A stretch of DNA of 64,000 nucleotides from an uncultured archaeon (lineage in GTDB: Archaea > EX4484-52 > LFW-46). Shown in pieces: positions 8,053 through 54,442 of this stretch; positions within the stretch are counted from its first letter, which is position 1; each line of letters starts with the position of its first letter. The position numbers and the translations under genes were made by a program. The notes under the pieces were generated by a model. The model saw only the letters and a program-made list of their open reading frames with translations. It was not told the DNA's origin and made no database searches. The stretch lies in assembly GCA_902384675.1 (NCBI GenBank), contig CABMCT010000031.1, positions 3,425 through 67,424 of the forward strand, in the 5' to 3' direction.

Positions 8053-8093
8053 TAGGTGTTAAAGTATTTAAAATCCCGCTGCAATAAACTTCT

Positions 8094-8624: not shown

Positions 8625-9324
8625 ACGCTTCTATAACGACAAGCTCTTCCCAATCAAACTTCTGCCGCGCAATTGCTTTTGCTGAGAAACCGATTTTTTT
8701 GAAGTGCAGCAGTGTTTTTTCATAGCGCGAAAGCGAGGATTCCAACAAGATTATTTTTCCGTGCGGATTCAGGAATTTTGGCGCGTCTTTTAAGAATCGC
8801 TCAATTATTTGCCTTCCGTCTTTTCCGCCATCAAGCGCGATGTTTTTGTAAATCGGTTCATCAGGCAGATACGGCGGATTGAAGACAATCAAATCAAATT
8901 TCCTCTCACTTGCGTTCGAGGCTTTTGAGGATTTTCCAGCTTGTCTGGAAATCATGCCTTGCGGCAAGCTTTTCAACCTTCGGTTGAAAAAGCCGAGAGT
9001 GTAACGAACGGACTCCCTATTCCTCAAAATTCCTTTTACATTCGCGAATAAATCGCTTTTGTGAAATTCTGCATTTTTTATTTTGTTCTGTTCGGCATTT
9101 TCTTTTGCGCACTTTACAGCTTCCGGGTTTATATCAACTGCAAGAACATGTTTCGCTTTCTTCGCTAAAACCAGCGCGATAATTCCGCTTCCTGTTCCGA
9201 TTTCCAAAACATTTTTCCCTTCTAAATTCAAATTCTGGAGCGCAGAAATCAGGAGAAATGTGTCTTCGGCGGGCTCGTAGACGTTTCCTGAAGTTTGGAT
9301 TTGAAAACCGTAAAGTCCGAGCAT
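8611..9324 (-). CDS. HemK/PrmC-like SAM-dependent methyltransferase (NPPY) with an in-frame ~37-aa repeat-derived insertion
   Basis: VLEIGTGSGIIAL motif I and LIVFNPPY motif IV. Segment ESVRYTLGFFNRRLKSLPQGMISRQAGKSSKASNASE between them is encoded by a dispersed-repeat copy (8915-9015). Confidence 0.8.
   Translation of the reverse strand: MLGLYGFQIQTSGNVYEPAEDTFLLISALQNLNLEGKNVLEIGTGSGIIALVLAKKAKHVLAVDINPEAVKCAKENAEQNKIKNAEFHKSDLFANVKGILRNRESVRYTLGFFNRRLKSLPQGMISRQAGKSSKASNASERKFDLIVFNPPYLPDEPIYKNIALDGGKDGRQIIERFLKDAPKFLNPHGKIILLESSLSRYEKTLLHFKKIGFSAKAIARQKFDWEELVVIEAFKPV
8915..9015. mobile_element. MITE-like dispersed hairpin repeat copy inside the hemK-like CDS
   Basis: 84 bp identical to 32819-32902; contains hairpins gcttttcaacc/ggttgaaaagc and ttccag/ctggaa. 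Confidence 0.7.
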
Positions 9325-9451
9325 ACAATCTCCTAGAATATCATGCCTTGCGGCAAGCTTTTCAATCCAGTAAATCCTTTCACTTCGTTCTAGGCTTTTT
9401 AGCCCAAAGTGAAAGGTGAATGGCTAAAAATGGATAATGATTGAAAATGAG

Positions 9452-9724
9452 CGAGCCTGGAGGGATCTTCAGCGGCTTCGGATAGTATTCTGTGACATCA
9501 ACTTCGTTGATGTCGCTCGTTTTTCTCTTTCTACCCGGATTTCAAACCATTCACCAACCGCTTTGGGTTGGAAAGCTTACCAATCGCAATTGGCATGATT
9601 TGTCTATCTCTTTTTGGAAAAAAGAGAAAGAAACCGTTTTTGAACCCCCGACCCCTGGCTTAGAAGGCTTACACGGAATATTTGCATAATCCACAGTGCT
9701 CTATCCAAGCTGAGCTACAGGCCC
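9452..9724 (-). tRNA. tRNA-Arg(UCU) with two non-canonical introns (in anticodon stem ~29/30, 25 nt; in T-loop ~59/60, ~172 nt); CCA not encoded
   Basis: Exon1 GGGCCTGTAGCTCAGCTTGGATAGAGCACTG (9724-9694); exon2 GCCTTCTAAGCCAGGGGTCGGGGGTTCAAA (9668-9639), anticodon loop CTTCTAA; exon3 TCCCTCCAGGCTCG (9465-9452). Exon3 completes the T-stem (GGGGG/CCCTC) and a 7-bp acceptor stem against GGGCCTG. Confidence 0.5.
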
Positions 9725-24520: not shown

Positions 24521-26737
24521 TTAGTATTTATACTTTTCTTCCTCCCACTCCTTCGCTTTCCCTTTCTCGTGCGCGGCTTTGGAGAAAACGCCGTGGTCGA
24601 CCTCAGGCACCAATATCATGCCTTTTAGCGGGTCAAGGCCATGCTCCCGTATTGCGTGATGCTGCGCTGCCCAGAGAGTCTCGTCAATCCCGTAGAATCT
24701 TGGCGGAAGGTCGTTTGGCTTTGTCTCTTTCTGCAGCTCGGCAACCATGTTCCTGAATGCAATGGCACTCTGGTCAATGCCAAAAGAGCCCATTTCCCAG
24801 ATAAAATACGCGTCCTTCATGCCCTTCTGGCGCAGGCTGAAAAGCCAGCCGTAGAGGACAAACATATCGTGCGACATGATATAAATCGGGGAATGGGCGC
24901 CTATTATCGGCCTTGGGGCGTTTATGTGCATCATTTTTATGTACTTGGCATCGCCATCCTTGAGGCTTGCTATATCCTGATCTACCCTTACAAAGTTTAC
25001 CGTGAGGTGCTCGAAGTCCATGGTGTAGCCGGTTATTTCGCCTTTATCCAGATGCTTGATAAGCGTGACATGATCATGCGCCGACATTACCCTTAATTCA
25101 CCCTCCTGGCCTTCGGGCGGCATTGCGGTTTCAATGAAAATCATCATTTTTGCGTCTTTTGTGTAGCTGTAGACTGATTCGTCTTTGAGGTGCTTGTATT
25201 CCGGGAATTCCGCAGCCATCCCCCATAAATCCCCTGAGACAAACAAATGGCCTTCGATGTATTTGCATGCGACTGCTGTGATGAGCTTTTTGACAAGGTC
25301 TTCTATAACTGTTTTATCTTCTTTACTATGCTCTTTATGTTTTTCGGAAGGTTCCACTTCTTCTCCAAGAAGCTCTTCTTCTTTAAAAATATTTTTGTCA
25401 TATTTTGATTTTCCTTTATCAGCGCATTTAATGATTATATCAGGGTCGTAGTCGCCTACGATATCCGTCCATAGAGGGTCGCGTGTCCAGTACATGAATT
25501 TTGCAATAACGCGATATGCAACTTGTTCCTCGCATTCGGAGCCTTTCGTCTTCCAGAAATCGAAAACTTTGTCAAAGTCGGTAGTCTTGAGGTAATACAA
25601 AACATGGTCATATATCTGATATATTTTGTATATTTTTGAAAGCTCGCCTAATGCATCTTCAAGCGTTTTTCCATTGTTCAATTCACGGATCATCAGTTCG
25701 TCCTTTTCACGTTCAACAGCGTAATCAAAAGACAGGTATTTTTCTGGCTTTCCGCTGTTGATTTCAGCGATTACTGCATTTGACGCAGAAGCTTCTCTGA
25801 AAAGCTGGTTATATTGCGGATTATTTCTTAGATTCTGGTCGACAGCTAACTCCAAGTCCTCTCCTTTAACTCCTCGGGATATCAGATATTTCCTAAGTTG
25901 TTCTCTTAATACATTCATTTGCGATTGGGCTTGAGTAAATATCTTTGTGTACCTTTCCAGCATGATTTTTTTAACCTTCTCATCCCATATTTTATCTCTG
26001 AGAGCGGTGTGTCTTTTTCCAGCCTCTTTTGCTCCGTCACTGAAGTTATCAAATGTTTCCATGAATGTTAGAACACCGACATCCCCGGAAAGCCCCATTA
26101 CATGAAAAAGCACTTTTGTAAACTTTGCTTTAAACCACTCGCGCATGCTTTGTCCTTTTGGCAACGTGATTTTTTTCCCTGTCTTTGGGTCTTTAAATTC
26201 GCCTTTATCAACAGCGTCGATCCATTGCCCTAAATTCGTTCCGTCAAACGAGTTCTGCTGTACCGGCGGCTCCTGATGCCCTACAGTAAACGTGACATGC
26301 GGCCTTATTCGCGAGGAAGTGTGGAAAAGAAAGAACTTTGAGCCTATGATTTCTTTTGATGAATAAGCTCCCTTGCGCAGGATTTCATGCATTTCCTTCC
26401 ATTCAAAGGCATTTGCTATGCAGAGGTCGACTTTTACAGGCAGGTGCAGGCCGACTTCCATTTTTTGGACGTCCTTGACGTGCATTATCAGTTCCTTGAC
26501 GTGGGGCTCGTACATTTCAGAAAGCGCTTCATAATCTATTTCGGTAAAATCAAAGCCAAGGCGCGCTGCTTTTACTATCTTTCTCGCCAAGCCCATGTTT
26601 ATCAGGCGCTCTTCTCCCTGTGCAACACTGGCAAAACCCGGGCTTGCTCCAAGAATGTAGCCGACAGGGTGGTTTTTGGCATCCCATCTGCCGTTTATGT
26701 GCGGCTGTTTCTTTTGTTCGTGGCCATGCTCGGACAT
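24521..26737 (-). CDS. Large hypothetical protein (738 aa from MSEHGHEQ; the ORF's upstream 69 codons look non-coding)
   Basis: ggaga SD 9 nt before ATG at 26737; no family recognised by eye. Confidence 0.6.
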   Translation of the reverse strand: MSEHGHEQKKQPHINGRWDAKNHPVGYILGASPGFASVAQGEERLINMGLARKIVKAARLGFDFTEIDYEALSEMYEPHVKELIMHVKDVQKMEVGLHLPVKVDLCIANAFEWKEMHEILRKGAYSSKEIIGSKFFLFHTSSRIRPHVTFTVGHQEPPVQQNSFDGTNLGQWIDAVDKGEFKDPKTGKKITLPKGQSMREWFKAKFTKVLFHVMGLSGDVGVLTFMETFDNFSDGAKEAGKRHTALRDKIWDEKVKKIMLERYTKIFTQAQSQMNVLREQLRKYLISRGVKGEDLELAVDQNLRNNPQYNQLFREASASNAVIAEINSGKPEKYLSFDYAVEREKDELMIRELNNGKTLEDALGELSKIYKIYQIYDHVLYYLKTTDFDKVFDFWKTKGSECEEQVAYRVIAKFMYWTRDPLWTDIVGDYDPDIIIKCADKGKSKYDKNIFKEEELLGEEVEPSEKHKEHSKEDKTVIEDLVKKLITAVACKYIEGHLFVSGDLWGMAAEFPEYKHLKDESVYSYTKDAKMMIFIETAMPPEGQEGELRVMSAHDHVTLIKHLDKGEITGYTMDFEHLTVNFVRVDQDIASLKDGDAKYIKMMHINAPRPIIGAHSPIYIMSHDMFVLYGWLFSLRQKGMKDAYFIWEMGSFGIDQSAIAFRNMVAELQKETKPNDLPPRFYGIDETLWAAQHHAIREHGLDPLKGMILVPEVDHGVFSKAAHEKGKAKEWEEEKYKY

Positions 26738-27275
26738 TTTTAAACATCTCCTTCTTCTTTGGTTTAAAAAGCTTGGAAACTGCATTTGCACCTTGGTATG
26801 CAAAGCTTGGAAATTCTTGCGAATTTCCATGAGTTTCCATGATTTCAAATCATTCCTCAATCTACTTGGATTTGAATCATCTCGTTCGCATAGCGAACTC
26901 GAAGCTTTTGGGAACCCTAAATCCCAAAAAGCTTGAAAGCGCAACTTATGCGCAAGCTTTCATGATGACAATCTATTGGTGAAGAGGGTATATAAAATCT
27001 GATATGATTTTTAAGCCGCGCTTCCACAACTTAAAATCCGTTCGCTATCGCTCTCGGCTTTTCAGACTTTGTCTGAAAAAGCGTGAAACTCGAATAAGCC
27101 GCAAGGAAGTTTCATGATTTTTATATACTCCTGTTTCCAATAATATTCAGTAATCTAATTTGGTGATATTATCGGAATTCTTGGCAAGCTCAAATCCAGT
27201 TTCGGTGGGGGGAAAAGCGATATTGACTCGAAAATAGACTCGGCATTCTCAAACCCCAACATTTCCGGAAAACTT

Positions 27276-42991: not shown

Positions 42992-43129
42992 TTATTTCTT
43001 AATCTCCGTGTACCCGCACCCGCCGCAGTAGACGCGGTTTTTCATCTGGGCCAGGAAATTCCTGCATTTGGGGCACTGCCTGTTCTTGCGAACAACGCCG
43101 CCTTCTTTGACTTCGTAAAGCTTCCACAT
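42992..43129 (-). CDS. rps27ae: Ribosomal protein S27ae (below ORF-track cutoff)
   Basis: MWKLYEVKEGGVVRKNRQCPKCRNFLAQMKNRVYCGGCGYTEIKK: C4 zinc ribbon in the S27a pattern. In-frame upstream KKPKSKNKHKNVQ suggests a longer N-terminus with a non-AUG start. Confidence 0.7.
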   Translation of the reverse strand: MWKLYEVKEGGVVRKNRQCPKCRNFLAQMKNRVYCGGCGYTEIKK

Positions 43130-43241: not shown

Positions 43242-43961
43242 TCAGCGGGGGCGGATTATCTCGATAGTTACATTACGCATCAACAGTGATTCAGGCGCTC
43301 CTTCCATGTTTTTCGTTTTCTGCAGTCCTACATAGACGTCTATTTTCTTGCCTGTTACGCCAAAAAATTTATCATCCGCATAAAATGTCTTGTTCATTAG
43401 AAGCTCTTTAACCCATCCATAGCTATTCTCTTTTCCAGAACCTAAGTCCTTGAAACGTATTATAGTGCCGGGTGGAAGCGGCGGATTTACTGCTATGCTT
43501 GCCCGCTCGCTTGTCCATGATACGAGCTCATTCCCGTATGCTCCTAATGATTTATCAGAAAGATAATATGTTTTTCCGTTATCGACATTATAATCATAGT
43601 GCAGGAATTTGCCTGGGTTTCCTTTGCCATCACCCTTTCCGGCGCCATCTATCCTTATTTGTTCGAGGAAATCGCTTTTATAGAATCCCAGCGATTTCCC
43701 GCCTGAATCAAAGACCTCCACTTTATTGCCGGAATAAACATCCTCATTGACGTCCTGATAAGATGTAATTGTCCAGCCGGATGAAATTTCAAGATTTTCG
43801 GGCGCAGCAGGAGTTCCATTATTACTCCCGGTCGGGTTGGAGACATTCGATGGCGCTGCAGGATTATTCTTTGATTCCCTGTTCCCTGAAAGCGCAAATG
43901 CCGCCAGAACTGCAGCTAGTGCAATGCATCCTACAATTATCGCGAACTTTCTCCTTGACAT
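43242..43961 (-). CDS. Membrane-anchored 3D-domain (MltA/YuiC-like) protein
   Basis: N-terminal TM; C-terminal IAVNPPLPPGTIIRFKDLG...YADDKFFGVTGKKIDVYVG. Confidence 0.55.
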   Translation of the reverse strand: MSRRKFAIIVGCIALAAVLAAFALSGNRESKNNPAAPSNVSNPTGSNNGTPAAPENLEISSGWTITSYQDVNEDVYSGNKVEVFDSGGKSLGFYKSDFLEQIRIDGAGKGDGKGNPGKFLHYDYNVDNGKTYYLSDKSLGAYGNELVSWTSERASIAVNPPLPPGTIIRFKDLGSGKENSYGWVKELLMNKTFYADDKFFGVTGKKIDVYVGLQKTKNMEGAPESLLMRNVTIEIIRPR

Positions 43962-44221
43962 AAAATGCGCTCCCTTTCTTGGTTTATTTTCCAGTTTGGG
44001 TTCAATACCCCGTAGCTCTGCTACGACCGAACTGGAAAAGATAGAAAATTGCCGGTCGCCCGAAGGGCGAAAAATTTGCGCAATACTCCGCAGCTTGCTG
44101 CGGTTGAGATGTGCAAATTTTAGGCAATTTTCTTTATTAATTAATTAGCTAACCGCGCTTTTTTGATAGCTGCGGTCTACGCGGTTGGCTAAAATCTGAA
44201 CTTCTTTTTGCTTTTTATGTA

Positions 44222-47200
44222 TCAGGACACGGTTCCTTGTTTTCTGAAAAGTCCTGTCAGTAGGCGCTTTTTTGCCGCAAGATAAAGCGCAGCCAGAACT
44301 GCCAGGACCGTCAAGCCTATGACGCCCGCCCTTCCTCTGGAATCTGCAGATAAAAGGTTTCCGGTAACTTTACTTTCAGGCGTTGTACCCGGCGATGTTG
44401 ATAGGGTTGTCTGGTTGCTGGCATTGAGCGCGATCTGCCTGCCGCACGATTGGCTGGTTGCCGGGCGGTCTTTCTTTGTGTCGCACTTGTTGATATCTGC
44501 ACATTCCCTTGTTTGCGAGCCGTTAACACAGCCGGACCAGGAACTGCATATCCACCGCTCAGAGCAGGATCTGCTTGACGCTTTGGTCAGGCCGAGGCTG
44601 TCGGTAATTTCATCTTTTATTTCTTCCGCTTTCTGGCTGACAGACGCGCTCCATCCTCCGCCGCCGGATGAAGGCGGAACCTGGGGCGACATATCGTCTT
44701 CATTTGTAGTGTTCCCTGTCGAATTCCCTGTATTGTTGCCTGTAAAGTTTCCAGTGAAATTTCCGGTTGTGTTGCCAGTCGAGTTTCCTGTTGTATTTCC
44801 GCCGGTGTTATTTGTTGGCTGCGTCGGGTGCCTCAGGTTATATACATCCTGGCCCTTTATGAGCCTGAACCTGCTGTCGTTTTTTAGCATCTCAAGCGTT
44901 CTGGTATATGTGTCCCATTTTGTTTGATTGAGCGTATCGCTTGAGTCGTTGGTCCTGAAGTCCTGCTGGTGTGCCATCAGCGGAATGACCGTTGTGCCGT
45001 TTATGTAAAGCGCATGGTCATTCTGGAAGTCCAGCAGATTCTGTATTACCTCGTTCGGCTGCTTGAATATTTCATTTGGACCCGGGTGCCCGCTTTGCGT
45101 AAAGCTTACAGAGTACTGGGTGATGTCAAAGTCAGGCAGCGAATCGGTATAGCCGTGCTCAGGGGTTATATACTCCTCAAGATATATGTTGAACCCGAGG
45201 TCATGCACTGCCGAGCGTATGGTTGGGTCGAATCTTCCGTACAACTGGTTATATGTGCGGGGCGCGCTCACGTTGCTTGTGTTCAGGATTTGCTGCATTT
45301 TGCTTTTGAAGTAATCCTGGTCCGAGCCGATTATCGCCTTAACCTCATCGTACGACATATTGTCCAAATCTCTTTCGCTTGTTCCCTGGCTCTTGGTGGC
45401 AAGCTCGCAGTTTGGGCATTTGTACATATTGGCAACGGCATTGTTGAATTGCGCATCGTCTTTGATGGTTTTTGAATAAAAGCTGAATGTTACGCTTATG
45501 TTATTGTCCTGGTGCCATTTCCTGAGCTGGTCATAGAAGTAAAACCAGCCCGAATCTATGCTGCCGTCAATGTCGCCGATATAAGGCACTACATACGCTT
45601 TTAGTGTTGTTGCGTTTTTGGTTATGTTTTTGCAATCAGCAGTGCAGGTGCTATTTGCAGCGCCGTTCTGTGCGCCGAGGTCGCATTCTTCCGGCGCTTC
45701 TACTATGCTGTTGCCGCAAGTTGCGTTCACACTGTTATTTGAGCCGGATACGGATATTTCAACAGTATTGCTATTTTTTGCAGGCACGTTGAATCGGATA
45801 TAATCCCTGTTGCCTACAATAAGCTTGGTGAATCCTGTATCTGCCCCGTTTACAGCAACTTTGGAAACATTGCCGCTTCCGACGTGCACCCTAAGCGTCA
45901 GGCCTTTGTCGAATATCGTTGCGTTCAGCGGATTGACGACATTGAATTTTATTCCTGTTGATGTGTTTGCGATGTCAGTTACCGTGGTTGCCTGCCGCTC
46001 TTTTATGTATTTTGCCACGCTGCCGATAGTGTCGACCCATATGTTTTTGGTCTTAATGTAATCCATAATTTCCGGATTGTTGCAGTAGTCGTGGTAGACA
46101 TAATTTACCCAGTCCCGGTAATTCTCGGCTACATCTGCCAGCGTGAAATAATCCGGCGGGGTGTCGCCGAAATTCAGGCTGTTGACGCTCTTAAGATTCC
46201 AGAAATCTTCGGGATTCTTGGATTCTATCTGGTTAATGTGGTATCCTCTTGCAAACTGAAAGTACGGGGAAAGCCAGTCTGCATATTCAGGGAAATAATT
46301 GCCGCAGGGCCAGTCGTATGTGACTAATTTAGATGCAGGCATCCCGATATTTTGCGTGATTTCCGCGATATTCTCCTGCGTGTCGCTGGTTAAGAAAGTT
46401 TTATCAAGCGGCGTTGCTGTGCAGGCATGAGATACCGAATGTCCGCCTATCTCATGGCCTTTTGCGTATGCGTTTCTCCAGATATCCCAATCTGATTGAT
46501 TGTATGTGTTGGTATATGCCAGGAAATACGTTCCTTTGATGCCTTTTTCATCCAGCTTGTCCTGGCACACCGCCTTTACATAACCAAGCGTGGGCTGGAA
46601 TCCGTCGTCCATCGAGAATGATGCGGCACCTTCGGAGCAGTTTTGCCAGTTGCATACTTCAATAGAGTTGCTGCTTATTTTTCCGAAAGCGAACCTGTGC
46701 TCCATGCTGTACGGGTTTACTTTGCCGCTTGAGCTTGCACATTTGTAATATATTTCTGCGGAATTGTTTGCAGGCCTGGTCATATTATATGAATGAGTCA
46801 GGCCGTCTGTTGTCGAAAGACCGGTGCCGCCACCCATGATGAAATTCTTATCCTTGCCGAATTCGCATGTTGACGGAATATCGGTAGAGATTTGGAGCCG
46901 GACGCTGTTTTGCGAATCGTCAATCAGCTTGTCCTGTTCCGGGCTGGCTATGCTTATTTTCGGATAGGTGTCTGATGTGCCGCAAAGCTTTGCCGCATCT
47001 ATTGCAGCGAAGCTCCAGCCGCATGTCTCAACCATTGCCTTGTTTGTCTTGAAATTCAGGTCGCTGAAATTGTAATCTATATTGCAACTGCTGCCATTCA
47101 AGCCAAGGCCCCGGTCAATGGCGCCCGCCTGTGCAAGATACCAGCTGTTGTTTCTCCAGAACCAGACCCTGTTGATGCATAAATCATAATCGCCAAAAAT

Positions 47201-48013
47201 GGTCAGGTTTGCCGGGTATGTATACGGGAATGTTAATGTGATATTTGAAGGGACATTCCATGCCGCTTTTTGCCATGCTGTTTTCGGTGAAGGCGCAGTG
47301 CCGCAGTTTCCATCAGAATCCGGTGCCCCTGTCGCATAAATCGCTTCGTATCCAGGCAGCTCGCTTGACGATTCTGCACTTAACGCGTATGAGCATCCTG
47401 TTCCGGATATGTTCTCGATTTTACAATTTGCGCTGCAGCCGCTGCCTGCCTGGCCGTTCTGTGCGCCGAGGTCGCATTCTTCCGGCGCCTCTATCTTGCC
47501 ATTTCCGCAAACAGGGCCTGTCGGAATAGACCCGCACAATTGTACTGCATCAGTAGAGCTCCATGACCATCCGCATGTCTGGAGTATCACTGTGTCAACC
47601 GGGAAATTGGCATTTACATTACGTACAGAAGTGCAATTATTATCAATGCTGTTTTGAACCAATTGTTTTTTGCCTGTGGTGCTGTTTGCGACCCACATGC
47701 TATTTGTGCACATATCATAGTCGCCGATTACTGTGATGTTATTTGCATTAACTGAGGTGTTGTATCGCAATGTAAGGTTCGCCATAATGTTCCAGTTTTG
47801 CGGAGCCCATGAATAACCCGGGCCGCTCCAGTTGCTGCACTCCCCTCCGGACGGCGCATCAGGAATACCGATGGCGTATATTGCCCTTGATGCATCGCTC
47901 TCGGAAGTTGCGCTTGCCTCGGAGGCATATTGGCAGACATCTTCTGCATATGCGTTGTTCAACGACATCAGGGCCATAACAGCCAGTGCCGAAATCAAAA
48001 TTGATGTTTTCAT
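44222..48013 (-). CDS. Giant (1263 aa) secreted, C-terminally anchored protein with central CE4/NodB polysaccharide-deacetylase domain and Cys-rich CGNGxxExxEECDxGxxN repeats
   Basis: Signal peptide MKTSILISALAVMALMSLNNAYA. Tandem ~170-aa duplicated N-terminal domains, each ending CGNGKIEAPEECDLGAQNG. NodB motifs FSMDDGFQP and GHEIGGHSVSH. TGN(T/S/F)TGN low-complexity stretch; C-terminal TM GVIGLTVLAVLAALYLAAKKR. Confidence 0.8.
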   Translation of the reverse strand: MKTSILISALAVMALMSLNNAYAEDVCQYASEASATSESDASRAIYAIGIPDAPSGGECSNWSGPGYSWAPQNWNIMANLTLRYNTSVNANNITVIGDYDMCTNSMWVANSTTGKKQLVQNSIDNNCTSVRNVNANFPVDTVILQTCGWSWSSTDAVQLCGSIPTGPVCGNGKIEAPEECDLGAQNGQAGSGCSANCKIENISGTGCSYALSAESSSELPGYEAIYATGAPDSDGNCGTAPSPKTAWQKAAWNVPSNITLTFPYTYPANLTIFGDYDLCINRVWFWRNNSWYLAQAGAIDRGLGLNGSSCNIDYNFSDLNFKTNKAMVETCGWSFAAIDAAKLCGTSDTYPKISIASPEQDKLIDDSQNSVRLQISTDIPSTCEFGKDKNFIMGGGTGLSTTDGLTHSYNMTRPANNSAEIYYKCASSSGKVNPYSMEHRFAFGKISSNSIEVCNWQNCSEGAASFSMDDGFQPTLGYVKAVCQDKLDEKGIKGTYFLAYTNTYNQSDWDIWRNAYAKGHEIGGHSVSHACTATPLDKTFLTSDTQENIAEITQNIGMPASKLVTYDWPCGNYFPEYADWLSPYFQFARGYHINQIESKNPEDFWNLKSVNSLNFGDTPPDYFTLADVAENYRDWVNYVYHDYCNNPEIMDYIKTKNIWVDTIGSVAKYIKERQATTVTDIANTSTGIKFNVVNPLNATIFDKGLTLRVHVGSGNVSKVAVNGADTGFTKLIVGNRDYIRFNVPAKNSNTVEISVSGSNNSVNATCGNSIVEAPEECDLGAQNGAANSTCTADCKNITKNATTLKAYVVPYIGDIDGSIDSGWFYFYDQLRKWHQDNNISVTFSFYSKTIKDDAQFNNAVANMYKCPNCELATKSQGTSERDLDNMSYDEVKAIIGSDQDYFKSKMQQILNTSNVSAPRTYNQLYGRFDPTIRSAVHDLGFNIYLEEYITPEHGYTDSLPDFDITQYSVSFTQSGHPGPNEIFKQPNEVIQNLLDFQNDHALYINGTTVIPLMAHQQDFRTNDSSDTLNQTKWDTYTRTLEMLKNDSRFRLIKGQDVYNLRHPTQPTNNTGGNTTGNSTGNTTGNFTGNFTGNNTGNSTGNTTNEDDMSPQVPPSSGGGGWSASVSQKAEEIKDEITDSLGLTKASSRSCSERWICSSWSGCVNGSQTRECADINKCDTKKDRPATSQSCGRQIALNASNQTTLSTSPGTTPESKVTGNLLSADSRGRAGVIGLTVLAVLAALYLAAKKRLLTGLFRKQGTVS

Positions 48014-48066
48014 AATTGATCACTATGAATGATTTATTCTCCCAGGAAACTGCAGAGTACGCCCTG

Positions 48067-49194
48067 TTATCTCATATGGTTCGGAGAGCCATTAGCCCAG
48101 ACCCTATTTATAGATTTGCAGATACGGCTAATTTCTTCGTCATTTAGCGACGGGTAAATCGGTACTGAAATTGCACGGCTCATGGCGCGCTCTGCGTTTG
48201 GGAATTCACCGCATTTACCGAAGTATTTGTGCAGCGGCCTGAAAACCGGCTTTGCGCAATTGACGCCGCATTTCTTCATCGCTTCAATGTATTTGTCCGG
48301 ATTATCGACTTCGACAACATACCTGAAACATATGCCATCCCGATTCGTTCTGCCATCCATACCGATGCGCTCAAACGCATCATCATAAATTTTTGCGATT
48401 TCATTTCTTCGCCTGATGAAAGAGTCAAGCTGCCTTAACTGGCTTCTTCCAAGAGCTGCGGCAAAGTCGGCCATTTCATAATTATAAGAAACGGCGTAGC
48501 CTTCCCGCTCGTCATATTTCGTCAAATCCGCAAATCTGTCCAGTAACTGCGGCGAGTTTGCCAGAGCCATTCCTCCATGGCCGGTTGTCAGGACTTTTGT
48601 TGCATAAAACGAAAATATGGACAAGTCCCCGAGGCTGCCGAGCTTTTTTCCTTTATACTCCGCACCTATTGCCTGCGCGCAGTCTTCGATGAGCGGCACA
48701 TCTATTTTTAGCAGCCTGTCAAGATTTGCCGGGATGCCGAACATGTGCGGCACAATTATTGCTTTTGTTTTTTTTGATAATTTTTCCTCAACCGATTCAG
48801 GGCTGATATTATATCCGCCGGGCTCTATGTCTGCAAGTACCGGCGTTGCTCCGGTGTAATTTACTGCGCTAAGCACCGATGCGCAAACATAAGTCGGTAG
48901 CACAACCTCATCGCCGGATTTTATACCAAGAGCCTTAAGCGCAAGATGCAGGGCATTGGTGCCCGAGTTTGCGGCGACACCCATGCGGACACCTATAAAG
49001 CTACTCATCTCTTTTTCAAACAAGCCAACCTCTTTGCGGGATGCAATTTGTCCGCTAAGCAGATTGCGGGCTACAGAATCCATGTCTCTCTTGCTGATTG
49101 TCGGCCTTGAGTGCGGAATTATCATTTGATCACTTCGAATAGTCGAAGACTTTCGAAGGCTTGAAAATCTGTGCGATTGCCTGAAGATTTTCAT
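48067..49194 (-). CDS. DegT/DnrJ/EryC1-family PLP-dependent sugar aminotransferase
   Basis: IPHSRPTIS start region, FSFYATKVLTTGHGG (PLP-Lys region); probable true start MIIPHSRP at 49125, upstream 23 codons being repeat-derived. Confidence 0.9.
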   Translation of the reverse strand: MKIFRQSHRFSSLRKSSTIRSDQMIIPHSRPTISKRDMDSVARNLLSGQIASRKEVGLFEKEMSSFIGVRMGVAANSGTNALHLALKALGIKSGDEVVLPTYVCASVLSAVNYTGATPVLADIEPGGYNISPESVEEKLSKKTKAIIVPHMFGIPANLDRLLKIDVPLIEDCAQAIGAEYKGKKLGSLGDLSIFSFYATKVLTTGHGGMALANSPQLLDRFADLTKYDEREGYAVSYNYEMADFAAALGRSQLRQLDSFIRRRNEIAKIYDDAFERIGMDGRTNRDGICFRYVVEVDNPDKYIEAMKKCGVNCAKPVFRPLHKYFGKCGEFPNAERAMSRAISVPIYPSLNDEEISRICKSINRVWANGSPNHMR

Positions 49195-49218
49195 GACCTC
49201 CTAATATCCTTTGGCTCT

Positions 49219-50976
49219 TTAAGCTATACCTGCTTTCCGGCTGTTTGTATCGCGGCATACAGTATCGCGAATCGAATCAATTGAATCTCCTCCGTATCTG
49301 TCGCGCGCCAGATCTTTCTTATAAAAATTCCTGGTTTTTTTGTCGGTCCCCTTAACTTCCCCGCAAGGGACGTAGCCCAGGTTGATGTAAAAATTATTTG
49401 CAGATGGATTGTCTGTCAGTGCTTTCAGTTCCGCCTGCGTTATGTTGTTTTCAAGGCACCTGCTTTCAAACGCATCCAGAAGCAGTTTGCCGATGCCATT
49501 TTTCCTGTGATTTCTGTCCACCAGGATTTTGTTGACCCTTGCCAATTTTTCATTTGCCTGCGAGCCTATGAGGTATCCGATTATGGCGCTGTTCCGGGTT
49601 GCTGCAAAACTAAGCTTCCATTTTCCGGGAATCCGGCACATGAAATTATCCCTGCTCCATGGCCGCTCGCCAAGCTCAGTCCAGTTGTCTTCAAGCGAAA
49701 GAAACTTTGAAAGATTCTTCATCACATATCTTTCGGAAATCCTGCGGATGATAATCTTTTGGGAGGATTCGCTGTCTTTGCGCCATGTATTGCTCCAGTT
49801 AAGCTGCTTGTGCGCGGCTTTTTCATAAGTAATTTTTGAAAAAGACACAAGAGTTAGCGCGCTTCCTATAAACTTGTAGACGTAAATTTCAGGGGTGTAG
49901 CGAAGGTATTTTGGAGAAATAATTGCCGTCGGAACTATAGTCAGGAAAGCGTCTGCCAGGAAAAAACCTTTTACATAGCTCATGCCAAAGAGCGGTAGTG
50001 CCCCGGGTGCGGCAACATTGATTGCAAAAACCAGCGGAAGGGTGACCACCCCCAAAGCATATGGCACAGACTCTATCATGCTCGGCAGAACAGTTGTCAG
50101 GAATAATTTTTTCGCTTTAACAAGCTTTCTTCCGTGGATGTAAATGCTCTGGAACGTTCCGGAGTACCATCTGAACCATTGGCGCATGAGAGCAGACGGC
50201 TTTTCCGAATCAAACGAATGAATCAGCGCGCCCTCCTCGTAAATTATTTTATACCCGTGCTCCTGTAGCACCCACGTGTAGTCGGTATCCTCTGTCTTTG
50301 TCCTTACAGGGATAGGAAGGTCATGCAGGATTTTTGTCCTGTATGCAGTGCCAGCGCCGCAAACAACAGAAACGGCGTTCCTGTAGCTCTGGGCAACTTT
50401 CCGGATTTTAAAGACCTCATTGTTCCAGGAATTTCCATAATGCAGCGCCCTTGCAAGCGGGTTATTGGGTGGGAGCGTATAGCCATAAGGCGTAACAGCG
50501 GCTATGTCATCCGAAGTAAAATTCCCGGCCATTTTTTCAATACATTCCTTGTCCAGGAGGATGTCGCTGTCAACAACAACCGTAATGCTGCCAAGCTGAT
50601 GCATTAATTTCTTAACAGCGTAATTTATGTTTTTCGCCTTGCCCATGTTTTTCTTCCGCCTCAGGTAAAAGAAATTATCAAATTCGAGCTGGAGCTTTTG
50701 GCATATTTCGTGCGTCCTGTCTGTTGAGCAGTCGTCAATGACAACCACATTTTTTGGCTTTAGCGTCTGGCTGTAAATTGACATGACAGTGGTTTCAAGC
50801 GATTTTTCCGAATTGTATGCAGGTATGATTACAGAAACTTTACGGTTATTTCCCCTTGACATGCAGCCCCGCTTCCCGGGATTTTTTTTAATCTTATCCC
50901 GGATGTACTTTAATCCGAGCGTTATGGCATCTATTGAAAACGTGAGAGGCATTATATACGGAATCCCGATTCCCAT
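49219..50976 (-). CDS. Processive-type family-2 glycosyltransferase fused to C-terminal GNAT N-acetyltransferase
   Basis: VSVIIPAYNSEKSL, DDCSTDRT, DSD, QWFRWYSG (QxxRW) followed by TM helices; C-terminal VDRNHRKNGIGKLLLDAFE GNAT motif A. Confidence 0.8.
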   Translation of the reverse strand: MGIGIPYIMPLTFSIDAITLGLKYIRDKIKKNPGKRGCMSRGNNRKVSVIIPAYNSEKSLETTVMSIYSQTLKPKNVVVIDDCSTDRTHEICQKLQLEFDNFFYLRRKKNMGKAKNINYAVKKLMHQLGSITVVVDSDILLDKECIEKMAGNFTSDDIAAVTPYGYTLPPNNPLARALHYGNSWNNEVFKIRKVAQSYRNAVSVVCGAGTAYRTKILHDLPIPVRTKTEDTDYTWVLQEHGYKIIYEEGALIHSFDSEKPSALMRQWFRWYSGTFQSIYIHGRKLVKAKKLFLTTVLPSMIESVPYALGVVTLPLVFAINVAAPGALPLFGMSYVKGFFLADAFLTIVPTAIISPKYLRYTPEIYVYKFIGSALTLVSFSKITYEKAAHKQLNWSNTWRKDSESSQKIIIRRISERYVMKNLSKFLSLEDNWTELGERPWSRDNFMCRIPGKWKLSFAATRNSAIIGYLIGSQANEKLARVNKILVDRNHRKNGIGKLLLDAFESRCLENNITQAELKALTDNPSANNFYINLGYVPCGEVKGTDKKTRNFYKKDLARDRYGGDSIDSIRDTVCRDTNSRKAGIA

Positions 50977-52053
50977 TTAATTCACCCCCTGAAAAACAGC
51001 ATCTTTTGAGGACGCGGAATTCTCCGGCAGGGCGGAGTCCCAGAAAATTTTTTTCCCGCCCACTTCCGTTTCATACCTCATGATTTGAACGCCTTCCTTG
51101 TAATCGAATTCCGGGTATGGTTCGTGCAGGTAATCCAGAACCGGCAGCAAGGCGATATTTCTTCCGCTTGCCGATGAAAGATAAATGCTGCCGCCGACAC
51201 GAGGGTTGACATCCAGGACATAAATTTTTCCTGAGTTGTCTTTTCTCATTTCAATCTCAATCAGGCCTTTGAGGTTAAGCGCTTCTATTATTTTTCTGCA
51301 CACTTCTTCCATTTCCGGCGCGTACACTGAAACAGAGCGCATTCCTATTATTTTGTCTCCTGCAGCAACCCTGAGCTTTTTGCGGACAGCGCCAAAATAT
51401 ATGCTTCCGCGGCTGTTGATATATGCGTCGATGCCATAATCGCTGGATTCGATGAACTGCTGGCATATCGGCGGGCCGAAGTCGTTTTTAAAAGAATTCC
51501 AATAATCCTCGAGCTTTTTCTTCTCATCAGGCGAATTGCCTTTTACTGTATGCGTGTGTCTTCCGCCCCTGCCCGTCCGCGGTTTTATAAAAGCCGGGAT
51601 GCCGACAAGTTTCCGGATATCCTCTATACTTGTGCCTTTTTCTATGCTTGCTGTCAGTGGAACGATATCAAGGTGCTTTGTTGTTTCATACAGTTTCAGC
51701 TTGTCCTTTGCAGACATGACGCCGCCATGATTTCCTATCGGAAGCGTGTTGATTTTTTCCGTGTTCCGGCAGCTCCCGGACAGCGCCACCATTTCTTCAT
51801 CAGAAGTAGGAATCACCAAATCGATGCCCAGGCTTTGGACAACTTTTTGCATTTGAGGTATGTACTCATTGCTTCCAGGGTTTGGAAGAATTACGAAATC
51901 ATCGCATAAGATTTTAGGGTGGTCCGGGCTCATATCTGCCCCGACAAAAAATAATCTTTTGCCCAGGTACGACTCTTTAAGGCATCTGACAAAGTTGTAC
52001 GCCGCTCTTCCTCCGATTGATGTAATAAGAATTTTGGTGTTCATAAAAAACAC
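50977..52053 (-). CDS. ATP-grasp ligase
   Basis: 358 aa; FIKPRTGRGGRHTHTV, YVLDVNPRVGGS ATP-grasp features; abuts the GT2 gene. Confidence 0.75.
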   Translation of the reverse strand: MFFMNTKILITSIGGRAAYNFVRCLKESYLGKRLFFVGADMSPDHPKILCDDFVILPNPGSNEYIPQMQKVVQSLGIDLVIPTSDEEMVALSGSCRNTEKINTLPIGNHGGVMSAKDKLKLYETTKHLDIVPLTASIEKGTSIEDIRKLVGIPAFIKPRTGRGGRHTHTVKGNSPDEKKKLEDYWNSFKNDFGPPICQQFIESSDYGIDAYINSRGSIYFGAVRKKLRVAAGDKIIGMRSVSVYAPEMEEVCRKIIEALNLKGLIEIEMRKDNSGKIYVLDVNPRVGGSIYLSSASGRNIALLPVLDYLHEPYPEFDYKEGVQIMRYETEVGGKKIFWDSALPENSASSKDAVFQGVN

Positions 52054-52083
52054 ATCTCCGGGTTTTCGAAATCCCGCAATTCA

Positions 52084-52932
52084 TTAATCGCTGCGCATAA
52101 GATCCATGACGTCGTTTTTGTTTCCGCCAGCAGACCTTAGCATTTCCAGTGCCCATGAAATATCGCCTACTTTTGAAGCATGGTGCGCATCGGAGCCGAT
52201 GCTGAATTTTACGCCATGGAACCTGCATATCCTGATAAACTCAGGCGGAGGCACGCAGTAGTTCGTGTTTATTTCAACAGCCTTCCCGTGTGCACCAATA
52301 AAGCTGGCAAGATTGTGCATTTCGGTTTCATCAGGCATCGTGATGTTGAACTTATGCAATAGGTCAAAAGGATGGCCTATGATATCGACTGATTTGTTCC
52401 TGCATATCGCCCTGAGCGCCTCAAGGTATACTTCCTTTGTTTTATGCGGGTCCAGCTTCTGTATAGTCGTGTCCCCTTCCATTATGTTCAGGCCAGGAAT
52501 CCTGTGAAGAGAGCAGACAATAAGTTCTGCACGATTTTCTGCGGATTTTGAAATGTCCAATGTTCCGTTCATATCAAGAAGCTTGGTTTCAAATCCGAGA
52601 ATCACTGCGGAGCCGCTGCTTTTTCTTCCATTTTCTACAGCTTCGATGTATTTGTCAACCCATGGAGAGCCAGCCCTTATATGTTCGGTTATTGCAATCT
52701 TTGCAAGGCCCTTTTCATTTGCAGCCCGAATCATATCCTGGACGCTTGAGTCCCCGTCGGTAAAATTCGTGTGCATATGAAAATCGGATTTTATTTCCAA
52801 CGCTCGAAAGCGCTGTTGGATCCGTTCGCTTGCGCTCTCGGCTTTCCAACCCAAAGCAGTTGGTGAATGGTTGCAAAAGGTTTGAAACTCGTGCCTTTTG
52901 CAAGCGAGTTTCATGATCTTTATTTCTTCCAT
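52084..52932 (-). CDS. PHP-domain phosphoesterase
   Basis: HMHTNFTDGDSSVQDMIRAANEKGLAKIAITEH; N-terminal ~40 aa repeat-derived. Confidence 0.75.
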   Translation of the reverse strand: MEEIKIMKLACKRHEFQTFCNHSPTALGWKAESASERIQQRFRALEIKSDFHMHTNFTDGDSSVQDMIRAANEKGLAKIAITEHIRAGSPWVDKYIEAVENGRKSSGSAVILGFETKLLDMNGTLDISKSAENRAELIVCSLHRIPGLNIMEGDTTIQKLDPHKTKEVYLEALRAICRNKSVDIIGHPFDLLHKFNITMPDETEMHNLASFIGAHGKAVEINTNYCVPPPEFIRICRFHGVKFSIGSDAHHASKVGDISWALEMLRSAGGNKNDVMDLMRSD

Positions 52933-53579
52933 GAACTCCCCTCCATTACGTTCAGGACAATATGATTCGCACAGAAAGGCTCTGCGTATGGGTGCGTGGG
53001 AGTACGTGCCGTACAGAAACAGTAGAACCTTAAATCCGCTTTCACCCGTTCCATATCTACACTGCCGCTTTTTATTTGCGATTTGTAGTGGGATAGCGCT
53101 TCTTTTTTCTTAAGAAAATCGTTTTTTGAGCCGACATGAAATATGTGCGGCTGAAACGATGCAAGGGCTGTTGCCGGCGTTTTATAAAAAAAGATATTGG
53201 GCACATCCCTGCACGCAATCGATGATGCATGGCTGACAGTTTCATGGTCCTGGTGCCGGTCTTGTGGAAAATGCAGATATGCAACAAGCGGGTTCTCGCG
53301 CGATATTATTTTTTCAAGGTCGTCCTTTAGCTCGTTAAAATGTTCGTGGAGGCGCGTATCAGGATAGTGAAGAAAATGCAATCGTTTTATCCCGATAAAA
53401 TCTGCAGCGCGCCTCGCTTCCATCATCCGGGTGTTCTTTTCGCCGCCCAGCTCGCCGTCGCTGCATATTATGCCTATAACATCGTCGCCCTGCAAAGCGT
53501 GGAACATCAGCCGCATCGCAGCTCCCAATTCGTAGTCGTCCGGATGAGCTCCGATTGCAACAACTTTTCTGTTTGCCAT
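52920..53579 (-). CDS. PIG-L/LmbE-family N-acetylglucosaminyl deacetylase
   Basis: VVAIGAHPDDYELGAAM and HQDHETV motifs. Confidence 0.85.
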   Translation of the reverse strand: MANRKVVAIGAHPDDYELGAAMRLMFHALQGDDVIGIICSDGELGGEKNTRMMEARRAADFIGIKRLHFLHYPDTRLHEHFNELKDDLEKIISRENPLVAYLHFPQDRHQDHETVSHASSIACRDVPNIFFYKTPATALASFQPHIFHVGSKNDFLKKKEALSHYKSQIKSGSVDMERVKADLRFYCFCTARTPTHPYAEPFCANHIVLNVMEGSSWKK

Positions 53580-54139
53580 AAATCACAGCATCACCCCGGT
53601 TAAAGCAGAAATCAATGCGCAAAGAAGAACGTTTGGTTTTGCACAATAACTATGGACGTTTTGGAAGAATTCTGCGAACATATCATCACCTTAAGAGTAG
53701 CGGTGTATTATCTCCCTTAAGATGGATATATCGGTTGCTCTTTAGCTTATGAGTATGAGAATACAGTATATAAACTTTCAAAATATTTTTGCCAAAAAAT
53801 CGCTAAACGCCGAAGATAAAAAATTCGTCAGGCGTTGAAAAGAAATATTTTTTCAGGGTGTGCTGTGCAAAAATGCATAACGAGAATCAGACGATGTTTG
53901 CGGGCTTAGAATCGGCGATTGCGTAATAATATAGAACCTTATTCACTTGCAATACGGGCAGTTGCATGCAGTTCTAGTTCCATTGTCCCGTGCGCCCGCC
54001 AGCTTTTTTTCAATATAACCTGCTTCGTTAGGCATATCGAATTGAGAGTTGATATCTACTATAATAGGACCTACAACGTTTCCTATAGTTCGTTCCGCAT
54101 ATATTTGTCCGGACATATAATCCATCATTTACTATTTTT

Positions 54140-54442
54140 CTATTTCTTCTCTTCAGTTGCAGGTGCTGCTCCTTCAGCGGGCTTTGCTTCGCCTTTCTTT
54201 GATTTCTTTTTCGGCGCCTCTTTGTCGTAGACGCTTGCAATTACTTCGCTCTGTAGCTTGCCGTATTTCTGGTAAACGTGGCTGACTGCGATATTCTCTT
54301 CTTTTGCAGAGAGCGACTTTGCCAATTCTTTCAGGACATCAGCCTTGCTCGGCGTTGCGCCGTCTTTTGTGAAAACTGCCTTTATCTCTTTTCTGGCGAG
54401 CAGTTCGTTTCTTTTGTCTGAAATTATTTTTAGTTCTTGCAT
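54140..54442 (-). CDS. rps24e: Ribosomal protein S24e
   Basis: MQELKIISDKRNELLARKEIKAVFTKDGATPSKADVLKELAKSLSAKEENIAVSHVYQKYG; start at the internal Met of the ORF. Confidence 0.85.
   Translation of the reverse strand: MQELKIISDKRNELLARKEIKAVFTKDGATPSKADVLKELAKSLSAKEENIAVSHVYQKYGKLQSEVIASVYDKEAPKKKSKKGEAKPAEGAAPATEEKK

Follow-up and report, generated by a model that had tools for sequence, protein, structure and literature searches.

Introduction

The PgaABCD and IcaADBC systems for poly-N-acetylglucosamine (PNAG) combine a membrane-embedded family 2 glycosyltransferase (GT2) bearing a QxxRW motif with an extracytoplasmic CE4 de-N-acetylase that acts after synthesis, and their loci also encode a glycan-cleaving activity. 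In the NodABC pathway, a NodC-type GT2 makes a chain of N-acetylglucosamine (GlcNAc), one N-acetyl group of which is exchanged for another acyl group in the cytoplasm. The mycothiol (MshA, A2, B, C, D) and bacillithiol (BshA, B, C) pathways run through glycosyl transfer, in some cases dephosphorylation, PIG-L-family de-N-acetylation, ATP-dependent ligation onto the free amine, and acetylation by a GNAT. The HS:2 module of Campylobacter jejuni pairs a pyridoxal phosphate (PLP)-dependent aminotransferase with an ATP-grasp amidoligase, positioned beside a GT2, and with a phosphatase; experiments have assigned these roles to the transaminase Cj1437, to Cj1438C (an ATP-grasp amidoligase fused to a GT2), and to Cj1435, a phosphatase acting after ligation (PMC11800397, PMC11800379). 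Here we describe a block of seven minus-strand genes, located at positions 43242-53579 of a 64,000-nucleotide stretch of DNA from an uncultured archaeon (contig CABMCT010000031.1; hereafter, the window), that shares features with each of these systems. With moderate confidence, we interpret the block as a conserved locus of DPANN archaea that makes, tailors, and remodels a surface-exposed, beta-linked N-acetylhexosamine (HexNAc) glycan of the chitin or PNAG kind.

Judged from its sequences, the locus works most like a Pga/Ica- or Nod-type HexNAc pathway, yet its enzymes fail the PgaC, NodC, and BshB model cut-offs and it contains no PgaD, NodA, or MshC. In comparison with Pga/Ica, there is no PgaD/IcaD-like partner and no PgaA porin, the membrane part of the GT2 is much smaller, and the host is archaeal; an anchored glycoprotein of 1263 amino acids houses the CE4 domain, the cutting enzyme has an MltA fold rather than belonging to GH153 or GH20, and four to five cytoplasmic tailoring enzymes (PIG-L, ligase, DegT, and GNAT) have no Pga/Ica counterpart. 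Unlike in NodABC, the cytoplasmic deacetylase is of the PIG-L type instead of the CE4 protein NodB, and the sole CE4 domain is extracytoplasmic; re-acylation would proceed through an ATP-dependent ligase (or WbqC) and a GNAT rather than through NodA, NodIJ are lacking, and an MltA-like enzyme is extra. The mycothiol and bacillithiol pathways employ a soluble GT4 and a cysteinyl-tRNA-synthetase-like ligase where this locus encodes a membrane GT2 and an ATP-grasp or WbqC protein; its GNAT is a single RimI-like domain, and DegT plus three membrane or extracytoplasmic partners are additional. In C. jejuni HS:2, the ATP-grasp enzyme is TupA-like and the phosphatase belongs to the HAD family, whereas here they are PylC/CPS-like and of the PHP type, respectively; the C. 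jejuni capsule is moreover ABC-exported and contains glucuronic acid, whereas the archaeal locus has no uronic-acid gene.

A literature search covering this combination of enzymes in archaea, Aenigmatarchaeota deacetylases, DPANN MltA proteins, and AglU found no description, and the enzyme set corresponds to none of the described pathways. A preliminary description of this DNA had said as much of the GT2::GNAT fusion and of the ligase choice. We regard the locus as a synthase-dependent system for an amino-sugar glycan whose accessory enzymes form an unprecedented set, in an archaeal lineage of essentially unknown envelope. To our knowledge, the cell envelopes and host attachment of DPANN archaea are almost uncharacterised, and polymer systems of the chitin, PNAG, or murein kind have yet to be characterised in this group.

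Conservation of the gene block

All seven minus-strand genes named in the preliminary description are present at the coordinates given there, and Pfam families could be assigned to six of the seven open reading frames (ORFs); its account of the gene content is correct. In the direction of transcription, the block encodes a PIG-L deacetylase, a PHP phosphoesterase, an ATP-grasp ligase, a GT2::GNAT fusion, a DegT aminotransferase, a giant CE4 surface protein, and a protein of 239 amino acids (p239). Related contigs, here labelled L001 to L095, were reached by a homology search with the GT2::GNAT protein, which is identical to VVB60208.1 and has few homologues, nearly all of them metagenomic. An exact look-up of this protein in the contig index gave no match, and a scan of genome contigs for relatives returned, among the matches listed, mostly unrelated bacterial GT2 genes, the relevant ones being L009 and L010. 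As a unit, the block recurs in no fewer than 10 other archaeal loci from metagenomes or metagenome-assembled genomes (MAGs), with gene set and order kept in L001, L003, L005, L006-L009, L090-L093, and L095 at GT2 identities of 30-80%. Because the identical set recurs in identical order over this range of divergence, the arrangement is evidently not a matter of chance. The preliminary description had raised the question of whether the cluster is conserved as a unit in any relative; it clearly is, and the unit spans distant archaea.

The closest relatives, L001 (GT2 80% identical) and L003 (59%), carry the whole block in equal order and chromosomal context. L005 has the same genes and an additional GT2::PIG-L fusion, while L091 encodes PHP, ATP-grasp, GT2, and a separate GNAT. 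In most relatives, a gene of the WbqC family stands in for PHP and ATP-grasp: L006, L007, L008, L090, L092, L093, and L095 all encode PIG-L, WbqC, GT2, GNAT (fused or free), and DegT, and the Nanoarchaeota MAG L009 encodes WbqC, GT2::GNAT, and DegT with PIG-L and a homologue of the giant alongside. The PHP and ATP-grasp pair and WbqC share the slot between PIG-L and GT2, and never occur together in the loci examined. The choice of an ATP-grasp ligase, to which the preliminary description drew attention, is not fixed, since most relatives use WbqC instead. The CE4 giant is present in L006, L007, L008, L092, L093, and L095 (the L090 contig ends right after DegT), and the p239 gene lies inside the cluster in L001 and L003 as well as in three of the WbqC-type loci (L092, L093, and L095). 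GNAT is fused to GT2 in some loci and forms a separate gene of 154-172 amino acids in many relatives. PIG-L occurs in all related loci, and the PIG-L and GT2 pair persists even in the most reduced one, L089, which consists only of PIG-L, an unknown gene, and GT2. Both L095 and L010 come from MAGs labelled Aenigmatarchaeota, and the relatives that carry an organism label belong to the Aenigmatarchaeota and Nanoarchaeota; we infer a DPANN-like lineage for the window. A possible link to methanochondroitin and Methanosarcina, suggested by the 44% GC content, was dropped since the named relatives are DPANN.

Some relatives carry further genes. In L092, two extra genes located between GNAT and DegT (7219-8912, plus strand) have weak matches to the creatininase family of amidohydrolases (E 8e-4 and 0.03), and a second giant protein of at least 3252 amino acids contains MopE-type metal-binding repeats.

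A synthase-type GT2 fused to a GNAT

The GT2::GNAT fusion (585 amino acids; 49219..50976, minus strand) matches the Pfam families Glycos_transf_2 (104 bits) and GNAT (44 bits). Its parts are, from the N terminus onwards, an amphipathic helix, a GT-A domain, an interface helix with the sequence QWFRW, transmembrane helices, a WSNxW motif, and a RimI/Ard1-like GNAT. Every motif of the cellulose, chitin, and hyaluronan synthases is present (DD, DxD, TED, and QxxRW), and the corresponding residues D81-D82, D136/D138, T228-E229-D230, and Q266/R269/W270 are invariant in 21 GT2 homologues. Both the fusion and the synthase-type QxxRW signature had been recognised in the preliminary description, and the Pfam matches and invariant motifs agree with it. 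The best full-length NCBIfam models were PgaC/IcaA (TIGR03937, 114.7 bits against a cut-off of 422.3), followed by XrtG-associated GT2, CelA, and NodC (TIGR04242, 55.6 bits against 550), all of them below cut-off. The Pfam model Glyco_transf_21, for ceramide glucosyltransferase, is above its cut-off. More distant homologues include chitin-synthase Pfam matches and fusions of GT2 with CE4, some of them also with GH18. At its source the GT2 bears the name AglI, a label that we did not take as evidence for N-glycosylation.

The AlphaFold2 model of the fusion (predicted local distance difference test, pLDDT, of 84) matches PcManGT, hyaluronan synthase, BcsA, plant CesA, and yeast Chs1, with the GT-A domain packed on the interface and transmembrane helices as in the solved synthases. 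The best match is the "minimal" PcManGT, an archaeal membrane GT2 from Pyrobaculum calidifontis (PDB 6yv7) that is GDP-mannose dependent and takes part in N-glycan synthesis according to its PDB title. Identity to PcManGT is 18%, whereas the closest sequences to the window GT2 are HexNAc and glucan polymer synthases, and the window GT2 is tied to polymer-modifying enzymes. Two of its helices (289-322 and 332-353) are clearly hydrophobic and a third (355-387) is semi-polar; in the model, the synthase fold is reduced to a minimal membrane part of two or three helices, from which a monomer would be unable to build a complete export channel. The cluster has no recognisable PgaD/IcaD-like gene. Because the membrane part is minimal and the monomer lacks a full channel, the argument of the preliminary description that the transmembrane helices imply a polymer exporter is not secure. 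The GNAT domain (~residues 405-560; 49297..49764, minus strand) appears to be of the N-alpha-acetyltransferase type, being structurally closest to Ard1, Naa10, and RimI. An even number of membrane passes would be needed to keep this acetyl-CoA-dependent domain in the cytoplasm.

Extracytoplasmic partners

Signal peptides or transmembrane segments were predicted for the giant and p239, and none for the tailoring enzymes. The giant (44222..48013, minus strand) is a surface glycoprotein-enzyme of 1263 amino acids with 44 N-glycosylation sequons and 36 cysteines. Its N-terminal signal peptide is followed by two Cys/Trp-rich domain copies, Cys-rich repeats of the DUF4215 type, a CE4 domain, a second and weak CE4/DUF2334-like region (~residues 795-1065), an NxT-rich linker, and a C-terminal transmembrane anchor. 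The CE4 (NodB-homology) domain (~residues 460-660; 46034..46636, minus strand) scores 41.4 bits with Pfam Polysacc_deac_1 (cut-off 23.1) and carries the motifs SMDDG, HSxxH, RGY, and YVYHD. D469, H525, H529, R589, and H641 are invariant in eight giant homologues, including the one from the Nanoarchaeota locus, with D470 present in seven of the eight, and the domain appears catalytically intact. Its Pfam match, invariant catalytic residues, signal peptide, and anchor bear out the earlier designation of the giant as a CE4 surface protein. Homologues in L001, L005, L008, L009, L092, and L093 are 40-69% identical over ~1060 amino acids where GT2 is merely 30-55% identical, a pattern that looks like the conservation of an enzyme, and the giants of WbqC-type loci likewise match CE4 or DUF2334.

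The Cys/Trp-rich part of the giant (residues ~26-350; 46964-47956, minus strand) consists of two tandem domains of ~150 residues each, neither of which matches a known family. Conservation is high in the second copy, where numerous W, C, Y, and D residues are invariant. The first copy by itself also finds a match in the giants of L006 and L007 (44-45% identity), which differ in their other parts. The domain may be a new carbohydrate- or host-binding module.

The last gene of the block (43242..43961, minus strand) encodes p239, which has an N-terminal membrane anchor followed by a putative extracytoplasmic MltA/3D-like domain. It has no Pfam match even at E <= 1, the MltA and 3D models included, no sequence match in the PDB by phmmer or profile search, and no support for homology with Escherichia coli MltA by hhalign. 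When the AlphaFold2 model of p239 (pLDDT 83) was compared with the PDB by Foldseek, the 11 best matches were all MltA-family structures (probability 1.00, E 9e-6 to 3e-4). D261, D297, and the catalytic D308 of E. coli MltA have counterparts in the p239 motifs SIAVN159PPLPPGT, YADD197, and KID208VYVG, and the spacing from D to D is 11 residues in both proteins; the correspondence is one of motifs and not a significant sequence alignment. D197 and D208 are invariant in 27 p239 homologues, as is the Asn at the position of D261. In an intermediate-sequence search, four of 40 distant relatives matched Pfam 3D (best E 2.3e-7), and other distant relatives are fused to GH18 (3.5e-62), GH114, DUF2334, or SLH domains. 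It is solely through predicted fold, motif spacing, and these intermediate sequences that the preliminary assignment of a 3D domain to the last gene was borne out, and p239 is accordingly predicted to adopt an MltA/3D-like lytic transglycosylase fold. It resembles MltA (GH102) and 3D-domain proteins in this fold, in the motif pattern including the equivalent of D308, and in its anchoring at the outer face of the membrane; it differs from MltA in having no Pfam or PDB sequence match, in the Asn replacing D261, in its murein-less archaeal host, and in the tiny size of its family (27 close members and 61 representatives among 1.84 billion proteins). In L005, the p239 position is taken by a protein of 332 amino acids (8460-9458, plus strand) with a weak match, below cut-off, to the chitinase family GH18 (E 1.4e-4), which would be consistent with a chitin-like substrate.

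Cytoplasmic tailoring enzymes

The first gene (52920..53579, minus strand) encodes a zinc de-N-acetylase of the PIG-L/LmbE family (219 amino acids; Pfam PIG-L 3e-24, 86.4 bits against a cut-off of 28.2) that contains both metal motifs, AHPDD and HQDH (HxDH). Among solved structures, those of archaeal diacetylchitobiose deacetylases and BshB-like proteins are the most closely related, and it reaches none of the equivalog models BshB1 (65.3 bits against 182.5), BshB2 (27.2 against 195.25), or Mca (20.8 against 277.15). A GT2::PIG-L fusion protein encoded upstream of PHP in L005 (1785-3122, plus strand) agrees with deacetylation of the GT2 product as a possible role.

The ATP-grasp amide ligase (358 amino acids, GTG start; 50977..52053, minus strand) matches ATPgrasp_Ter and ATP-grasp_3 and has a PylC-like N-domain (PylC-like_N); its ATP-binding Lys and E/D-x-N metal residues are invariant, and PDB 2pn1 scores 50 bits. 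A search of 5.8 billion clusters turned up only 12 close homologues, and all six with visible contigs lie in gene clusters of this kind. The PHP-family metal-dependent phosphoesterase (ORF of 282 amino acids; 52084..52932, minus strand) is confined to loci that also carry the ATP-grasp gene. It matches Pfam PHP (1.6e-15, 58 bits) with a core from ~residue 42, as well as NCBIfam PRK08392 (126 bits) and histidinol-phosphatase models (54-56 bits), all NCBIfam matches being below cut-off; in the PDB its closest matches are PolX PHP domains and YcdX.

WbqC (PF08889), which takes the place of this pair in most relatives, is not homologous to the ATP-grasp protein by hhalign, has no PDB or NCBIfam match, and gave an uninformative literature search. 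A tentative lead is that WbqC may come from the E. coli O121 cluster, where an N-acetylglycyl amino sugar is made; a literature search on this N-acetylglycyl O-antigen was likewise uninformative. The WbqC proteins of L006, L008, L009, L090, L092, L093, and L095 share the invariant motifs AHQPNxxPYxGxF, YxSGxGGxxY, and FQxxxHPxYxQ.

DegT (DegT/DnrJ/EryC1 family; ORF of 375 amino acids; 48067..49194, minus strand; Pfam 1.1e-85, 288 bits) is a PLP aminotransferase with its Schiff-base lysine in place (SFYATK) and is 46-80% identical across all related loci. None of the equivalogs tested was reached (PseC 211 bits against a cut-off of 423, LegC 191, ArnB 174, as well as WecE and DesI), and the best PDB match is 7b0d (196 bits), followed by perosamine synthetases. 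Because homologues of PHP and DegT are shorter (240-243 and 345-353 amino acids, respectively) and align from residues ~42 and ~23, the true starts of both probably lie downstream of the first ATG; for DegT, the probable start is M24 at 49125.

Proposed pathway

Taken together, the conserved CE4 giant, the MltA-like p239 family, and the GH18-like substitute in L005 point to an extracellular chain of beta-linked, N-acetylated amino sugars. In the pathway that we propose, the membrane GT2 would build a HexNAc chain from a UDP-sugar at the inner membrane face, and the cytoplasmic PIG-L would strip the N-acetyl group from a particular residue of the product. An amide ligase would then couple the amine exposed in this way to a new group that bears a carboxylate and is most likely an amino acid. 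The ligase slot would be filled here by ATP-grasp and PHP, the latter removing a phosphate from a phosphorylated substrate or product, and by WbqC in most relatives. DegT would provide the amino group of the added moiety, or that of a rare amino sugar, and the Ard1/RimI-like GNAT carried on the synthase would cap that amine with acetyl. Outside the cell, the CE4 domain of the giant would de-N-acetylate the chain and the MltA-like enzyme would cut it. A speculative linear version has DegT yielding a phosphorylated amino acid or amino alcohol, ATP-grasp ligating it, PHP dephosphorylating it, and GNAT acetylating its alpha-amine. Some N-acetyl groups of the glycan would thus be replaced by another substituent, probably N-acetyl-aminoacyl, and the likely role of the product is that of a cell-envelope or adhesive matrix polymer of small, probably host-attached archaea. 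The sequences themselves show the protein families, their catalytic motifs, the predicted locations, and the conserved gene set and order; we infer, in this scheme, the donor sugar, chain length, tailoring site, export route, decoration chemistry, and product.

Of the two readings offered in the preliminary description, namely (a) a GlcNAc chain, polymeric or oligomeric, that loses acetyl groups and is then re-acylated and (b) a mycothiol- or bacillithiol-like small molecule, the first is the better fit because the GT2 has all of the motifs and the fold of a processive synthase, because it is always linked to an extracytoplasmic CE4 domain with invariant catalytic residues, because a glycan-cleaving MltA-like enzyme is linked as well (with a weak GH18-like protein replacing it in one locus), and because the closest solved relatives of PIG-L are archaeal diacetylchitobiose deacetylases. 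Four points weigh against the proposed glycan pathway. Every enzyme falls below its equivalog cut-offs. DegT requires a keto substrate, and no sugar dehydratase, dehydrogenase, or nucleotidyltransferase was found in the cluster, its relatives, or the rest of the 64-kb window. The access of cytoplasmic enzymes to a polymer under extrusion is not explained. Finally, WbqC and ATP-grasp are non-homologous, and their swap may mean a different decoration instead of equal chemistry.

A more far-reaching version, to which we attach a slim likelihood, is that DPANN archaea (Aenigmatarchaeota and Nanoarchaeota) possess a murein-like aminoacylated glycan wall or adhesive matrix, in which a chitin-like chain would carry N-acetyl-aminoacyl or similar groups on some glucosamine nitrogens and would be matured by CE4 and remodelled by an MltA-type enzyme, with an origin independent of peptidoglycan and pseudomurein and with WbqC and ATP-grasp plus PHP as interchangeable ligation cassettes. 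If the product were an aminoacylated hexosamine polymer, it would constitute a new class of archaeal wall or matrix material. The locus is a compact and conserved candidate of seven genes whose enzymes all look catalytically intact, and it comes with natural variants: WbqC versus ATP-grasp plus PHP, GNAT fused versus free, and an MltA-like versus a GH18-like cutter. It would give the uncharacterised WbqC family its first functional context, in a fixed slot between PIG-L and GT2 that makes it testable, and would do the same for a rare archaeal branch of the MltA/3D fold. It would also show a use for a "half-tunnel", minimal cellulose-synthase-like GT2.

Alternative explanations

The same genes could serve a Nod-factor-like pathway, in which the GT2 makes a short cytoplasmic chito-oligosaccharide and no long polymer. 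PIG-L would remove the acetyl group at its non-reducing end, the ligase and GNAT would add a new acyl group there, and the product would be exported as a signal or adhesin. A membrane part of only two or three helices would suit such an enzyme, the solved PIG-L relatives act on the non-reducing GlcNAc of chitobiose, a soluble product would easily explain cytoplasmic tailoring, and NodC is among the models matched by the GT2. However, the NodC score of 56 bits is far below its cut-off, neither NodA nor a NodIJ-type exporter is encoded, and the CE4 and MltA-like or GH18-like enzymes, conserved outside the cytoplasm, have chains as their substrates and would have no obvious role for a short signal. 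We consider this explanation rather unlikely.

About equally doubtful is a lipid-linked glycan, for which the GT2 would add HexNAc to dolichyl phosphate or another lipid acceptor in the manner of PcManGT, PIG-L would deacetylate as in glycosylphosphatidylinositol (GPI) synthesis, and the ligase, DegT, and GNAT would finish an unusual sugar that ends up on the giant or in the membrane. PcManGT reportedly depends on dolichyl phosphate, as described in 2020. The above-threshold match to Glyco_transf_21, the action of the family that gave PIG-L its name on lipid-linked GlcNAc, and the 44 sequons of the giant would all be in keeping with this, and pairs of DegT and GNAT are standard in the synthesis of N-glycan sugars. 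On the other hand, the TED and QxxRW motifs are invariant and the best sequence models are polymer synthases, most loci have no oligosaccharyltransferase, flippase, or additional glycosyltransferase, a lytic-transglycosylase-like or GH18-like enzyme next to an intact CE4 is unexpected for a glycolipid or N-glycan, and the giant is conserved as an enzyme (40-69% over 1060 amino acids) rather than as a mere substrate.

A third alternative concerns the decoration only and is compatible with any backbone. Following the logic of Cj1437, Cj1438, and Cj1435, DegT would make a phosphorylated amine (e.g., serinol phosphate), ATP-grasp would join it to a uronic-acid carboxylate, and PHP would dephosphorylate the product. 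This trio of activities beside a GT2 is proven in C. jejuni HS:2 (PMC11800397, PMC11800379), the PHP protein matches models for histidinol phosphatase, which acts on an amino-alcohol phosphate, and PHP always accompanies the ATP-grasp gene. Nevertheless, DegT is kept at 58-65% identity in WbqC-type loci that lack the phosphatase, which argues against a simple copy of the C. jejuni pathway; the ATP-grasp protein has no TupA-type model match, the phosphatase belongs to PHP and not to HAD, a UDP-sugar dehydrogenase that could supply a uronic acid is missing, and PIG-L and GNAT would be without a role. We regard this alternative as less likely still than the two preceding ones.

The weakest alternatives are a soluble small molecule and an attack on host walls. 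The former is highly improbable: its chemistry maps in order onto the gene set (glycosyltransferase, phosphatase, PIG-L, ligase, and GNAT) and the best NCBIfam matches of PIG-L are BshB1, BshB2, and Mca, but reading (b) captures an abstract logic only, since these scores are far below their cut-offs, the glycosyltransferase is a membrane-embedded synthase-type GT2 rather than a soluble GT4, no MshC/BshC-type ligase is encoded, PHP and ATP-grasp are absent from most relatives, and the conserved DegT, CE4 giant, and MltA-like enzyme, two of them extracytoplasmic, would have no role in a thiol pathway. Equally hard to credit is a role in host-wall attack or attachment, in which a foreign polymer, for instance peptidoglycan, would be the substrate of the CE4 giant and the MltA-like enzyme, and the two would be merely co-located with an unrelated glycan pathway: bacterial CE4 (PgdA-type) and MltA enzymes both act on peptidoglycan, many DPANN archaea live as episymbionts and have giant surface proteins, and the p239 gene has its own 260-nucleotide upstream spacer, but both genes stay beside GT2, PIG-L, DegT, and GNAT down to 30-36% GT2 identity, and the DPANN hosts known to us are archaea without murein.

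Gene organisation, leader region, and genomic context

The spacers between the longest ORFs, from PIG-L to the p239 gene, are -13, 30, 0, 24, 53, and 260 nucleotides. The packing with overlaps or spacers of 0-54 base pairs (bp) that the preliminary description reported therefore holds for the first six genes and fails for the last. The 260-nucleotide spacer between the giant and p239 genes (43962..44221, minus strand) harbours four or more short hairpins rich in GC, together with an AT-rich stretch, TTAATTAATTAATAAAG, which could be terminator or processing sites plus an internal promoter; the same junction in L001 measures merely 25 nucleotides.

Upstream of the first gene, a box resembling an archaeal transcription factor B recognition element (BRE) and TATA element, AAAGTTTATATA (53767..53778, minus strand), was read directly from the sequence ~190 nucleotides ahead of the PIG-L start codon. 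It is conserved in the aligned upstream regions of L001 and L003 and is likely the promoter of the unit, with a transcription start predicted ~25 nucleotides downstream of 53767. A scan for sigma-70 promoters and intrinsic terminators gave nothing above shuffled sequences, the models being bacterial and not applicable to archaea. Between the box and PIG-L lies a leader element of ~41 nucleotides, CATCTTAAGG-N-CTCTTAAGGTGATG (53684..53724, minus strand), which has no Rfam match. It can be folded into a hairpin of 11-12 bp (predicted free energy in the window -16.4 kcal/mol, z = -3.1) with a Shine-Dalgarno-like GGTGAT inside its 3' arm, just ahead of an upstream ORF of 32 codons, and can alternatively be read as a direct repeat of TCTTAAGG. 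The window, L001, and L003 have exactly the same arms despite diverging flanks; there is no covariation, so that RNA structure and DNA operator are indistinguishable. The element could be a translational control element or, as the direct repeat TCTTAAGG, a DNA operator. The upstream ORF, a putative gene (MFAEFFQNVHSYCAKPNVLLCALISALTGVML; 53583..53681, minus strand), stops 3 nucleotides ahead of the PIG-L ATG; a similar peptide is encoded in L001, and L003 has a small ORF of different sequence at the equivalent place.

The cluster sits between the ribosomal protein genes S24e (54140-54442, minus strand, upstream) and S27ae (42992-43129, minus strand, downstream), with Rpo7 and Spt4 farther upstream of S24e, and the flanking context is identical in L001 and L003. 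S24e and S27ae are adjacent in many archaea, and because of this the seven genes look like an insertion within a conserved string of ribosomal and transcription genes. FEN1, ABCE1/RLI, and an H+-pyrophosphatase complete the set of flanking archaeal housekeeping genes. The archaeal host given in the preliminary description is correct. In comparison with L001, identity is 97.5% for Rpo7 and 95% for the H+-pyrophosphatase versus 69-88% for the cluster proteins; in comparison with L003, it is 85-87% for the flanking housekeeping proteins versus 59-72% for the cluster proteins. Such faster divergence of the cluster than of its flanks would fit a surface structure under diversifying selection.

Elsewhere in the window, numerous further ORFs of 150-270 amino acids have no Pfam match, as is typical of DPANN genomes, and an ORF of 807 amino acids (24521-26944, minus strand) belongs to no family. 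Two tRNAs are the sole Rfam matches in the window. A small protein encoded at 4756-5223 (minus strand) weakly matches archaeal flagellins and pilins, and the gene at 18602-20752 (plus strand) encodes a HerA/DUF87-type ATPase.

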